This document shows positions 16,095 to 24,686 of a DNA stretch of 49,192 bases, piece by piece (position 1 is the stretch's first letter; the number at the start of each line of letters is the position of its first letter). Where the stretch lies: the NCBI GenBank assembly GCA_039190745.1, contig JBCCXZ010000025.1, positions 1 to 49,192 of the forward strand, written 5' to 3'. This DNA comes from Planctomycetota bacterium (GTDB lineage: Bacteria > Planctomycetota > Planctomycetia > Pirellulales > Lacipirellulaceae). Made by a program: the position numbers and the translations under genes. Under the pieces are notes generated by a model. The model searched no databases, was not told where the DNA came from, and worked only from the letters and a program-made list of their open reading frames with translations.

Positions 16095-16774
16095 GGATGA
16101 CCCCGCAGGTGGTAGGCTGATCGCTGGTACGCTGCGCACGCGGCGTACTGCGGGTTGAACTTGGGGCGCCGCATAAGACGACTGTTTCAACGGCGACCGG
16201 AAAAACTTGGTCACGCCTCGCTGCTAGGCAAGTCGTTGCAAATACGAATCACGAACAATCGATAAGAAACGTCGACCCAGAGTTGGGATGTGCAATCAGC
16301 ACTCCGGGCGTGCAGATTCGGTTTTGCAAACCGCAGGAAGCCGGTGCAGATTTATGCACGCCTGATCGGCGCTTGTTTCCGTTGCATCTGGCGTGGGGCT
16401 CAACGCACCACAGGAGAGTGCGGAGACACGATCGGCCAGGCGCTGCTTCGGAGAGTGTCGACCGCAAGAAGGAAGCCTTCTTTTGGAACGTTCGAACCGA
16501 CTTTAATGTGGGCTGCTGGCCGTCAGCAGCCAACTTCGATGCCTGCCACAGCCTCACGAACCGGGTTCCGCGGGAGTTTCTCTTCCGAACCTCAATAACT
16601 CGAGTTCTATGGTGAGTTGCCGCAAACCCTTGGTCTGTCCCGCTCAATTGTGGCCTGCACCCCGGGGATCCGAAATGAGATACGGCCGATTGCTTTCGCT
16701 TCACACCGCAATCAGCGATAATCCGGGTTTGGCGGGGAACTCGTCTAGCGGAAGCTACTTTGAGGAGGCAATCC

Positions 16775-18560
16775 ATGCGCTCTGCTGCGCTCGCTCTATC
16801 GTTCGGAACCGCTGCGTTGCTGGCGGCAAACTGTGTTTACGCCGACCTGCCGTCGGGCAACCCGATCCCTGGCAATGTCTCGACGGCGTTCTGGTCAATC
16901 GAGCTCGAAGAGGTCGTGTCGATCCCCGACAGCGGCGGTACCTTCGCACGGCTGGAGTTTCTCACCGGGGGCGGGGCGCCGGGGCAGGCCTATGTGATCG
17001 ACCAGCGAGGAGAGATCTACTCGTTCGACCCGAGCAGCCCGAACCCGACGCCGACGGTGTTCCTCGACCTGTCGACGGCGGTGCCGAATTTCAATTTCCA
17101 GTTCCAGACCGGCGTCCGAGGAATGGCGTTCCACCCGGACTTCAACAACCAGGGGACGGACGGCTACCGAAAGTTCTATACCTCTCATAGCCGGAATGCA
17201 TTTGCTCCTACGGTTCCAGGAACGGTAAACCCGACGTTCTTCAACGCACCGAACCCTCCGGGTCTGGATCACGACTCAGTCGTTGGAGAGTGGACGGTTA
17301 ACGCAAACGGAACCGTGAACACATCGTCTTACAGAGAGTTGGTGCGAGTTGGTCAACCGTTTACTCAAGCCGGTCAACCAGGGAGCGACCACAACATCGG
17401 TTCGATCGGATTCAACCCCAACGCGGGACCGGGAGACGACGATTACGGGAATCTCTACATTGCATTGGGCGATGGGGGCGGCCCGAACGACCCGAACGAC
17501 CTCGCGCAGAATATCAACACCAACCAGCCGGGCGGGGCGACAGGTTTCCCGCACGGTTCGATCCTGCGGATCGACCCGATCCAATCGGGGGGCAACCCCT
17601 ACACCATCCCGACCGACAACCCGTTTGCTGGGCAGTCAGGCATCATCCAGGAAATCTGGGCCTACGGCCTACGGAACCCCCACAAGTTTTCGTTTGACAC
17701 CGCGGGCGACGGCAAGATGCTCATCTCCGACATCGGCCAGGTCAATGTCGAGGAGATCAACCTCGGCGCTCCGGGCGCCAACTACGGCTGGGTGGAGCGG
17801 GAGGGCACGTTCCTCAAACCGGGCACGAGTTCGAGTCTCGACCCGCTGCCGGCGGGTCACCCGACAGACGGCTTCACCTACCCGGTCGCCCAGTACGACC
17901 GGAACAACGGGCTAGGTTCCGGCAGTTGGGCCGTGGTTGGCGGCTCGGTTTACCGGGGGACGAACGTGCCGCAGCTGACCGGCATGTACCTGTTTGGCGA
18001 TTTCGCGACGAACTCTGGGCCGATCCTGGCGGTGGACGTCGATGAGTTGATTCAGCGCGAAGACTTCGGCGATCTGAACAACCTCAGCGGCGGCAACATC
18101 GCTCCGTACGAGCGTCTCCGCTTGATCGACGGCTCCGACGGCGTGGAGAAGACCCTGCTTGAAATCATCCAGGAAACCAACCCCGGCACGAACCGGACCG
18201 ACCTCCGCTTCGGGGTCGGGCCGGACGACGAGATCTACATCCTTAACAAGCGGGACGGCATCGTGCGGCGGATCGCTTCAGCTTCGGGGCTGGCCGACGG
18301 CGACACCGACCGCGACGGCGACGTCGACCTCGCAGACCTGCTCACGCTGCAGCGCAACTTCGGCGGGGCGGGCGACTGGAGCGACGGCGACGTCAACGGC
18401 GACGCGGTGGTCGACGGGACTGACCTCGCCTTGCTGGAAGCGGCGCTGGGCAGCGGGTCGGCCGTGTCGGGCGGGGCTGTGAGTATCCCCGAGCCGGGTG
18501 CGGTTTCGCTGGTTGTTGCGTGGTGCGTCGTGCTTGCCGCTGATGGTCGCCGGCGGGCGT

Positions 18561-18574
<14 letters not shown>
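16775..18574 (+). CDS. Exported PQQ-dependent glucose/sorbosone dehydrogenase-family beta-propeller with dockerin-like repeats and PEP-CTERM
   Basis: GAGGAGG RBS, signal peptide, GMAFHPDF, LYIALGDGG, IWAYGLRNPH, EEIN..GANYGW, DGDTDRDGDVD, IPEPG-TM-RRR. Confidence 0.85.
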
Positions 18575-21548: not shown

Positions 21549-22115
21549 ATGCTCCGGCGTTCATCTCTCAGGGCTTTCTCCCGCAAGGCTGTTGCTGTGG
21601 CAATGGCTGTGGTGTTGGCGGTTTGCAGTCTGGGCATCCCTTTGCCGGGTCCGGCCAAGGAGACGGAAGAAGCCTTCCCCTGCATGGACTGCCCATGCGC
21701 CTGTGCCGAAGCCAAGACTTGCTGGGAGAATTGCTGCTGCATGACCGACGCCCAGAAGCTGGTTTGGGCGGCCCGGAATGGGGTGGTCCCGCCTAGTTTT
21801 GTAGTGGCGAGGGCGCGGTCGTGCTCAGAGCCGGTCGCGCGGAGCTGTTGTTCGAAAGGCCCGGCGGCGGGGAGCCCGGCGAATGAAGTCGCCGGGCCGG
21901 ATGACGGACCTGTCGGCGTTTTGGTTTGGAAGGCTCTTGAGTGCCGGGGGTTGTCGATGGGGTGGCTGGTTGCGATCCCGACGCTCTCGGCAGACGAATC
22001 CGGTTCACTCGTCCCCGCGGAGACGCCGCCGGCGCCAGTCTGCGTGCGGTCTCCGCTCTTCTCGGTCGTGCTGTACGACCACGACACGCCGCCCCCGCAG
22101 GCTTCTGCCGCGTGA
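21549..22115 (+). CDS. Cys-rich exported protein with Pro-rich C-terminus
   Basis: Signal-like N-terminus; FPCMDCPCAC...CWENCCC, SCC; ends TPPPQASAA. Confidence 0.75.
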   Translation: MLRRSSLRAFSRKAVAVAMAVVLAVCSLGIPLPGPAKETEEAFPCMDCPCACAEAKTCWENCCCMTDAQKLVWAARNGVVPPSFVVARARSCSEPVARSCCSKGPAAGSPANEVAGPDDGPVGVLVWKALECRGLSMGWLVAIPTLSADESGSLVPAETPPAPVCVRSPLFSVVLYDHDTPPPQASAA

Positions 22116-22173
22116 CATCGCCTCTCGAGATTGGGTTTTGACTGCGTACGCCGTGTGCGCAGAGCAACGGCTT

Positions 22174-22246
22174 TGTGGGAGGGCTCTCTGAGCCCGATTA
22201 CGCTCCGCGATGGATGCGGTAATCGGCCCCGGAGAGGCCTCCCACA
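22174..22246. repeat. REPIN (inverted pair of GTGG-type REPs)
   Basis: TGTGGGAGGGCTCTCTGAGCCCGATTAC ... GTAATCGGCCCCGGAGAGGCCTCCCACA. Confidence 0.8.
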
Positions 22247-22358
22247 GGAGAAGTCTTGCCTCGACCAATGAGAGGCGCCTCTACCTCTCTAATGCCTGCT
22301 CCGGTTGCTCACCGTTCGTTGGTGATAGCCGACGCGGGTCTCGATTAGGAACCAACCC

Positions 22359-23069
22359 ATGCGCTGGCGGCGTGGATTCACGCTCGTCGAGCTGCTGGTG
22401 GTGGTCGCGGTGATCGGAGCGCTGATAGCGCTCTTGTTGCCCGCGGTCCAGGCGTCGCGTGCGGGCGCAAGGCGGACGCAGTGCGCGAACCACCTGAAGC
22501 AGATCGGCCTGGCGTTCCATATGTACCTGGACTCGCACGGCGGCGAGTTCCCGCGGAGTTCGCACTCGGCGAACATGTTCGGCGAGGCTCCGTGGGGTTA
22601 CGCCGTGGGGCCGTACCTCGACCCGGCGACCAGCCCGGACCCACAGAACCCGGTAATGCCCGGCGCTCTGAAGGGCGGCGTCTACCGCTGCCCCGACGAC
22701 ACGCGCGACGACTGGGAGGAGCGCGGGCTGTGGAGCTACGGGCAGAACGTGTGGCTCGAGCTGCGCGCCAACGAGACGGGCGGCGTGTTCGGGCAGCTTG
22801 AGGGCCCGACGTTCCGGCGTCTCAAGCAGGTGCGCTGCACGTCGCGGACGGTGTTGGTCTCTGAGCTGGAAAGCGGCTCGTCGGCGGACCACGTGATGGC
22901 GCACTTCTGGCACTTTGGCGGCGCGCCGGAGGTGGCGCGCGACCGCCACAGCGGGGTGTCGCACTACCTCTGGGTCGACGGCCGCGTCAGCAGCGAGCGG
23001 TTCGAGGATACGTTCGATAGAGAAGCCGGAGTGGACCTGTGGAACCCCGATACGGCGGGCGATCCGTGA
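22359..23069 (+). CDS. DUF1559-type protein with prepilin N-terminal cleavage/methylation motif and H-X9-DG motif
   Basis: [57 protein letters not shown]. Confidence 0.92.
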
Positions 23070-23138: not shown

Positions 23139-24686
23139 ATGAAACTGATTCGTACTAGTTTGTTGCTCGCGGTTGCGGCGGCGATCGCTCCGCGGTGTTA
23201 CGCGGCGACGCCCCCGATACCAGGGATGACCAGCGGCAGCGGGAGCAATGGGATGAAGCACGTGTTGCTTTCTCAGCCGGGTCTTGGCACTGCCTTGTCG
23301 GTGCACATCGAAGACCCGCCGCCGACGCCGGTGGTGATGATGAGCGGGCACGGCACGGACTACACGTACACGCCCATGGGCGGTGAGGCGTTCCCCAACC
23401 CGGGCAAGTTCGACGTGCTGGAGGGCGTGTTCTTCAACGCCCAGCACGGCTGGCTGCCCGACGGGCCTTTCAACCTGCCGTCGGGCGGTCTGGTCTGGAT
23501 CGAACGGACAGGCGTGACGCAGCCGGCGGGGTCGGAATTAAAGGTGTATGAAGGGGGCAACGGGGCCGAGGGCATGGGCGCTTGGTCGATGGCGGAGGTC
23601 TACGCCGCGGACGGCGACATCTGGCAGTGGGACGGTGCGATGCAGCACGACTACTTCACCGCCGACACGTTGGGCGACTATTCGATGTCGTTCAACATAT
23701 ACGTGGGCGACGCGTCCGGGGTTCCGATTTCGGGATTCGCGTCGACGAGCACGACGCTCGACTTCCGGGTGGTGCCGGAACCAGGGTCGGCCGGGCTCGT
23801 TGTGCTGGGGGCCGCTGTGGTCTTCGGTCGGCGGCGTCGCGGGGCTTTCCCCGCGGCGTTGGCCGTGGTCCTTCTGCTAGGAGTGCCGAGCGGTGAATCC
23901 ACGGCCGGCTACGTGCTGCCCCAGCTGGGCGGGGGGCAGGCCGCCTGGGGCGCGGTTGCGATGAAGCACATCGACGTGTCGTTCGACGGGGTGAAACTCT
24001 CGGCGCAGATCGACGGCAGCGTGGCCACTCCGGTGCTCACACCGCTGGAAGACCCGGACGAATTCAACCCGGCCATGCCCTTCGCGGTGCTTGAGGGTAA
24101 GGCCTACAACCTGCAGTACGGCTGGAACCCCAGCGGTTTCTGGGCCCCGCCCGTGGGGACGGCCGTCTGGGTGAAGCGGCTGGCGGGGCCGGCGGAGATC
24201 GAAACCTACTTTGTTGATGGCTGGCCGTCGCTCACGCCGTACTCGCCGATCATGGGGACCGACGGGAGCTCGGACATCTGGAAGTGGGGGCTTTCGATGA
24301 CCCACAACGCCTACGCGGTTCTGAACCCGACGCAGTCGAGCTACGAAGTGGAGTACGAGCTGTATATCGGCGATGCGGTGACCGGGGCGGCCGTGCCGGG
24401 GTACGGCAGTGCGCTGAGGACGCTTGTGTTCGACGCGACGCCCGTGTTGGGTGCGGACTTTGATGGCGACGGCGACGTCGACCAGCAGGACCTGCAACGG
24501 TGGCGGGGGGACTTCGGCCTCAACGGCGACTCGGATTCCGACACCGACGGGGATTCTGATGTGGCCGATATCCTCGCTTGGCAGCGGGAGTCCAACGCCC
24601 AGGCGTCGATTGTTGCCGTGCCTGAGCCGGGTACGCTGGCGGCGGTGTTGGTTGCACTGGGGTGTTTCTTACAGCGGGCACGCTAG
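23139..24686 (+). CDS. Double PEP-CTERM surface protein with two paralogous Met/His domains and a dockerin-like repeat
   Basis: Signal peptide; internal VPEPG-TM-RRRR; terminal VPEPG-TM-QRAR; ADFDGDGDVD. Confidence 0.85.
   Translation: MKLIRTSLLLAVAAAIAPRCYAATPPIPGMTSGSGSNGMKHVLLSQPGLGTALSVHIEDPPPTPVVMMSGHGTDYTYTPMGGEAFPNPGKFDVLEGVFFNAQHGWLPDGPFNLPSGGLVWIERTGVTQPAGSELKVYEGGNGAEGMGAWSMAEVYAADGDIWQWDGAMQHDYFTADTLGDYSMSFNIYVGDASGVPISGFASTSTTLDFRVVPEPGSAGLVVLGAAVVFGRRRRGAFPAALAVVLLLGVPSGESTAGYVLPQLGGGQAAWGAVAMKHIDVSFDGVKLSAQIDGSVATPVLTPLEDPDEFNPAMPFAVLEGKAYNLQYGWNPSGFWAPPVGTAVWVKRLAGPAEIETYFVDGWPSLTPYSPIMGTDGSSDIWKWGLSMTHNAYAVLNPTQSSYEVEYELYIGDAVTGAAVPGYGSALRTLVFDATPVLGADFDGDGDVDQQDLQRWRGDFGLNGDSDSDTDGDSDVADILAWQRESNAQASIVAVPEPGTLAAVLVALGCFLQRAR

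Follow-up and report, generated by a model that had tools for sequence, protein, structure and literature searches.

A probable secretory polyprotein with an internal PEP-CTERM signal in a planctomycete of the Lacipirellulaceae

We analysed a window of DNA (the whole stretch of 49,192 nucleotides) from a Planctomycetota bacterium of the Lacipirellulaceae. Comparison with the genes of relatives showed that two once-separate PEP-CTERM genes, here called A and B, are genuinely fused in one stop-free frame of 515 amino acids on the plus strand (23139..24686). We consider it probable that the A-B gene works as a secretory polyprotein, cleavage of which would give two exported proteins; these are predicted to pair as an A-B heterodimer. 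With somewhat less confidence, we propose that Planctomycetes, and above all the Lacipirellulaceae, use a general polyprotein strategy, in which a cassette of about 47 residues (PEP and helix, the shared Arg cluster, then a signal peptide with A-x-A) links between two and ten exported proteins in each ORF. Such chains would have arisen by recurrent short deletions between neighbour genes, and signal peptidase I and exosortase would resolve them; in the present case, the two subunits of a new heterodimer, metal-binding through Met/His, would be supplied at 1:1. If this is true, the definition of PEP-CTERM changes, the signal being not strictly C-terminal, exosortase or signal peptidase I must be able to act mid-chain, and many planctomycete ORF annotations need correcting. 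The arrangement would then offer a compact means of secreting several proteins in fixed proportion, an operon of exported proteins having become one chain. The question is directly testable, since fused and unfused versions of one pair exist among relatives.

Architecture and products of the A-B gene

The frame opens with a predicted signal peptide (residues 1-22; 23139..23204; predicted cut CYA|A), which was clear by eye and from the N-termini of homologues. It is followed by domain A (23205..23771), which carries the invariant motifs MKH and W.W...M.H, a possible metal site. The first PEP-CTERM signal (23772..23840) consists of VPEP, a hydrophobic helix, and RRRR (23829-23840). This Arg cluster is shared with an internal signal-peptide-like segment (23829..23906), in which it would form the n-region, followed by an h-region and a c-region leading to S-T-A; the assignment drew on the sequence itself, a second species of the same genus, and free B homologues. 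This second hydrophobic stretch ends with ESTA at 23906, and G257 occupies 23907-23909. In three free B homologues (P0005, P0006, and P0009), VQA|GYVLPQ stands right after the signal peptide, and from this register the signal peptidase I cut was predicted at 23906|23907. Domain B (23907..24446) accordingly has GYVLPQ as its mature start. The chain continues with a dockerin-like repeat of the Ca-binding type and a linker (24447..24617), and is closed by the second PEP-CTERM signal (24618..24683), in which VPEPG from 24618 and a helix lead to QRAR and the stop codon. All of these features lie on the plus strand.

This order of parts, with its coordinates, had been given in a preliminary description of the DNA and held good throughout. 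The paralogy of A and B claimed there was also confirmed: the two domains share 30% identity across 199 columns (E 2e-17), and an alignment of 30 homologues showed MKH, VL, N.Q.GW, and W.W...M.H without variation. The dockerin-like repeat fared less evenly: a Pfam scan of the 515-residue protein gave no match on it, but PF00404 was detected on 8 of the 14 homologues among the matches listed. Two TIGR02595 stretches, as the preliminary description had anticipated, were found in the protein (whole-protein score 24.3 bits; cut-off 16), and PF07589 likewise matched two stretches (24.5; cut-off 20.7). With both profiles, the best-scoring stretch was the internal one (residues 212-234). The second signal lies at the extreme C-terminus, and the first has 304 residues behind its start; the predicted cut would be needed to bring the first into a terminal-like position. 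When the genome was scanned for PEP-plus-hydrophobic sites with an open frame upstream, 139 of 157 ended within 46 residues; the A-B frame continues for 304, and hence the join is not a product of chance. The genome also encodes an exosortase (PF09721; G000:C2; E 1.3e-56) and a signal peptidase I that scored above the cut-off.

Both domains were predicted as beta-sandwiches, with a pLDDT of 86.5 for A and 77.8 for B. Prediction of the A-B complex gave a score of 0.79, against 0.00 for the best of three controls; the runs had at least 96% of contacts in common, and the pLDDT of the partners was at least 90. Of 157 solved complexes, 116 reach the mark passed here, as do 2 of 215 mismatched pairs; for alignments of our own, these counts are a rough guide. 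The predicted interface takes in the invariant Met17, His19, and Met146 of A and Met19, His21, and Met131 of B. These models support a heterodimer of A and B, which would give a reason for 1:1 output; the pass may, however, reflect an interface common to the family, since the partners are paralogues. Structure searches with A and B gave generic beta-sandwiches as the best hits (Z 6.3 and 6.5) and no specific match, and searches of the cargo domains against NCBIfam and the sequences of the PDB returned neither a family nor a solved homologue. An Atlas search gave two results that serve as leads only, namely 0.87 to a cluster named MbnP and, for domain A, TM 0.58-0.60 to choice-of-anchor M clusters. 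From the invariant Met and His residues, the cargo might be an extracellular metal-binding pair, copper being a guess; Met/His sites such as these suggest Cu(I).

A DUF1559 prepilin-type gene (22359..23069, plus strand) lies directly upstream and is conserved in relatives. The conserved first gene of the cluster (21549..22115, plus strand) encodes a Cys-rich predicted secreted protein, for which TIGR02595/NCBIfam-type and Pfam scans gave no family match. These two genes precede the A-B pair across the family, and the genes of 21549-23069 together with the pair may form a metal-uptake module. An Rfam scan of ten homologous loci detected no family. Elsewhere in the window, 16760-18574 encodes a Glucose/sorbosone dehydrogenase-family protein with a dockerin and a canonical-looking C-terminal PEP tail.

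The fusion among relatives and related junctions

In the second species of the genus (G001), the same 515-residue layout was found, with 88% identity and zero indels. The two genes differ by 78 synonymous and 62 amino-acid changes; over the 22 codons of the junction, 5 changes are synonymous and 5 alter the amino acid, and the segment is still hydrophobic and ends with A-T-A. A contig of sequencing run X1 spans the stretch with two differences and no gaps, although that run is possibly the source of the present DNA, and the contig is thus not independent. A contig of run X2 also spans the stretch without gaps; it comes from a relative at about 89% and adds no further independent case. According to the preliminary description, its reading would be overturned if the junction held a stop and a new start in the reads or in close relatives. 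This was not borne out: the fusion is intact in the second species and has arisen again in another genus.

A match to domain A was found in 16 of 120 genomes of the family, and the pair is fused in three of these (the present genome, G000, the second species, and G044). The remaining 13 have a first gene that stops after its PEP-CTERM signal; wherever the contig reaches, the next gene is an unfused B that has a Met and signal peptide of its own. G044 belongs to a different genus, and its junction sequence is unrelated to those of the other two fusions. In a tree of the 13 genomes with both domains (G089, G081, and G019, in which one half or an A-type first gene is missing, were omitted), G044 was nested among unfused relatives with support of 100/100, and a single fused clade was rejected (p-AU 6e-77). 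The unrelated junction and this placement show two independent fusions. The residues at positions -3 to -1 of the three junctions are S-T-A, A-T-A, and A-T-A.

Between VPEP and the start motif of B, the fusions have 138-147 nt and unfused pairs 164-282 nt, the latter range being that of ten pairs (A-B or paralogue) that each gave a single clear match (G081, with two matches, was omitted). Because the fused spacing lies below any unfused spacing, we infer that a deletion removed the stop codon, the spacer, and the start codon, leaving one Arg cluster, and that this happened twice. The double role proposed earlier for the Arg cluster, as tail of the anchor and n-region of the next signal, fits such an origin. 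In G004 (L006 / L040), the frame of A overruns the ribosome-binding site and start of B, an overlapping, near-fusion state.

An open frame of 506 residues in G533 was considered as a third fusion and rejected, since it holds one domain only. Where the motif was readable, no fusion was detected in 17 matching genomes of the family of G533 and 15 metagenome loci; A ends at a stop codon in 6 of these 15 loci and is fused in none. As most relatives lack the fusion (13 of 16 genomes, besides the metagenome loci), any selective gain from it is hypothetical. Frameshifting programmed to bring in a stop behind RRRR was also rejected: the out-of-frame TAG of the present genome is missing in the second species. 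A domain-alignment search for longer proteins of 549-2000 residues found nothing, which is weak evidence.

The genome holds a second PEP-CTERM polyprotein, a frame of 932 residues on another contig (C35; G000:C35:22586-25384; L025, L048), the second half of which is an M14 zinc carboxypeptidase with a dockerin-like repeat. Traced by domain homology only, this family is fused in ten genomes of five genera and split in others. Its junctions vary in length and have low identity, with Ala at -1 in all ten and Ala or Ser at -3 in all ten. On a further contig, PEP-CTERM sites at G000:C8:33484 and 34610 run in frame into a leader that appears to resemble the planctomycete extracellular motif more than a Sec signal; stops and shifts of frame interrupt this region.

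A first profile, built from 12 junctions with the cleavage region included, was run over the family genomes. From its best 150 matches, those that were stop-free and reached profile position 44 or beyond gave at least 81 distinct junctions with a median length of about 47 residues. In 71 of the 81, the second hydrophobic stretch was followed by A-x-A, compared with 33.6 ± 3.8 in shuffles, a figure that is biased by the profile. Since the first profile had covered the cleavage region, a second profile was trimmed before it. Among held-out junctions found with the trimmed profile (two candidates without a basic cluster were dropped), A-x-A was present in 11 of 18, compared with 6.3 ± 1.7 in shuffles, and 10 of 2000 shuffles reached 11. 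A looser small-x-A rule on the same set gave 17 of 18 against 14.5 ± 1.5, which is not above chance. All of these counts overstate the significance, since kin are not independent. When all loci were pooled, there were at least 102 distinct junctions in about 59 genomes or records. The invariant PEP and the small residues at -3 and -1 were kept in junctions of 20-33% identity.

Joins of this kind occur in many proteins unrelated to one another, and a junction search of a protein library returned 276 proteins at E 0.001 or better. Among the matches listed, 139 of 149 new proteins had at least one internal junction and 75 had two or more. The protein P0079 is a chain of 2,500 residues with ten TIGR02595 stretches, with PEP and cleavage features at every join, and multi-unit ORFs in genomes (L238, L243, and L244) hold three and at least four PEP-CTERM units. 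With the trimmed profile, 300 genomes of the phylum (up to 25 candidates scored in each) gave few long matches, and junctions were confirmed outside the family at L182 and L242. Hence, the junction appears to be rare outside the family in the genomes searched.

Proposed processing and alternative explanations

In the processing that we propose, signal peptide 1 would direct domain A through Sec, and helix 1 would act as a stop-transfer segment. RRRR would remain in the cytoplasm, as the tail of anchor 1 and the n-region of signal 2 at once. The positive-inside rule has been applied to PEP-CTERM by Haft et al. 2006 (PMC1569441). By this rule, with RRRR cytoplasmic, helix 1 would run out-to-in and the next hydrophobic stretch in-to-out, so that translocation would restart and domain B would be exported. 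Cleavage behind ESTA would fall to signal peptidase I, and cleavage at each PEP to exosortase. One junction cut, by either enzyme, would be enough to part A from B, and since one translation yields both, their amounts would be equal. The internal signal peptide and the cleavage sites are likely, as predicted by pattern and homology. Whether an exosortase substrate ends up anchored or released is unsettled according to PMC12188702; ZepA occurs in the exoproteome (PMC10957091).

B could instead be made by an internal restart. An in-frame GTG at 23817 stands four codons ahead of RRRR and behind a Shine-Dalgarno (SD)-like GGGGG (23807-23811; the whole site at 23807..23819, plus strand), and would yield a normal B precursor of the form M-V-F-G-RRRR-...-ESTA; on this reading, the making of such a product would be the reason why the signal peptide has been retained. 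An SD-pairing analysis gave -8.4 kcal/mol for this site, the strongest (tied) of 50 in-frame start-type codons and better than the median of -5.6 for 91 putative real starts in the genome, and GTG and its SD-like site are unchanged in the second species. The gene is, however, rich in GGG (26 of 65 Gly codons) and GTG (31 of 45 Val codons), and such a motif therefore arises easily; a predicted hairpin over the GTG was no stronger than in shuffles. Across junctions, start-plus-SD sites showed a modest excess, with 13 of 81 against 10 of 152 controls (p 0.036) and 19 of 102 against 49 of 478 coding windows, but with controls from the same loci the difference was not significant (18 of 102 against 14 of 137, p 0.12). 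A start with SD pairing of -5 kcal/mol or better is missing in 83 of the 102 junctions, whereas 52 of the 91 putative real starts have one; 20 of the 102 have no start-type codon at all, and neither the G044 fusion nor the C35 family has a comparable site (best -3.7). Nor would restart be exclusive of the long chain, as A is only producible within it. It may add B at the A-B locus and does not explain the class as a whole, and we regard it as unlikely to be the main source of B.

The protein might also stay uncleaved, as a three-helix membrane protein in which signal 1 is removed, the junction hairpin tethers A and B in the periplasm, and the internal PEP is a relic. The topology works without cleavage, and a tether would also hold the predicted heterodimer together. 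Haft et al. 2006 (PMC1569441) treat a C-terminal position as part of the definition of PEP-CTERM and suggest that cases with long tails may lack function. A permanent hairpin, however, requires neither PEP nor small residues at -3 and -1, and both are kept at the low identity of the junctions; the ten-unit chain even repeats them at each join. We therefore judge a permanent tether to be quite improbable.

A tolerated accident, in which short deletions between Arg-rich stretches join adjacent PEP-CTERM genes to give a processed product of no benefit, would agree with the patchy occurrence of the fusion (3 of 16 genomes) and with the near-fusion state in G004. Such a reading addresses why rather than how and is compatible with cleavage. 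Against it, the fusion survived 160 nucleotide changes between two species, the A-B pair was fused twice, and the C35 fusion was kept across its five genera, which leaves it a highly doubtful account. A sequencing or assembly error that deleted a stop codon, conceivable in a metagenome-type assembly of 125 contigs, is refuted by the same frame in the second species, the gap-free contigs of the two runs tell against it as well, and a whole intergenic spacer rather than one base is missing at the junction; its chance is negligible.

Taken together, these findings support the polyprotein interpretation of the preliminary description, in which cleavage is a predicted step. That description had overlooked the possible start at GTG 23817 and the wide occurrence of such junctions.

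Comparison with known systems

The A-B protein resembles PEP-CTERM/exosortase substrates in its predicted N-terminal signal peptide, its PEP-helix-basic cluster, the exosortase in the genome, and cargo of no known family. It differs in that its first signal lies mid-chain, 304 residues short of the end, and continues directly into another signal peptide and another cargo, whereas Haft et al. 2006 found 87% of PEP-CTERM signals within ten residues of the end (PMC1569441). Our literature search, with partial coverage and supplements excluded, found no account of an internal PEP-CTERM signal joined to a signal peptide, and the words 'polyprotein' and 'internal' are absent from the text available of PMC1569441 and from 10.1101/2023.06.07.544157. 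ZepA (All3515), a zinc-scavenging protein, is likewise an exported PEP-CTERM protein with conserved His (PMC10957091). The choice-of-anchor M / TIGR03773-associated surface proteins are similar in the predicted structure of domain A, as a lead only. Unlike A-B, however, ZepA and the choice-of-anchor M proteins are single proteins with another Met/His motif, and they gave no sequence match.

Processed polyproteins, a standard device of viruses, are seldom found in bacteria, where operons take their place. In the envelope polyproteins of flaviviruses and pestiviruses, an anchor is followed by an internal signal, and the host signal peptidase releases equimolar partners. Those systems belong to viruses and the eukaryotic ER, whereas A-B is a gene of a bacterial chromosome with exosortase signals. 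In Bradyrhizobium japonicum, one gene, fbcH, reportedly gives rise to cytochromes b and c1, as Thony-Meyer et al. are said to have described in 1991; an internal signal sequence behind the membrane part is said to be cut at Ala-X-Ala. FbcH is like A-B in that two proteins come from one bacterial ORF. In A-B, too, two stand-alone proteins share one frame, A and B being separate genes in relatives, and the small residues found at -3 and -1 of its internal n-h-c signal agree in register with the predicted mature start. FbcH differs in being a single case in a respiratory complex with a polytopic first half, and it is not known to have a sorting tag, repeated independent origins, or multi-unit chains. 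Bradyrhizobium FbcH is the nearest bacterial precedent for the A-B gene.
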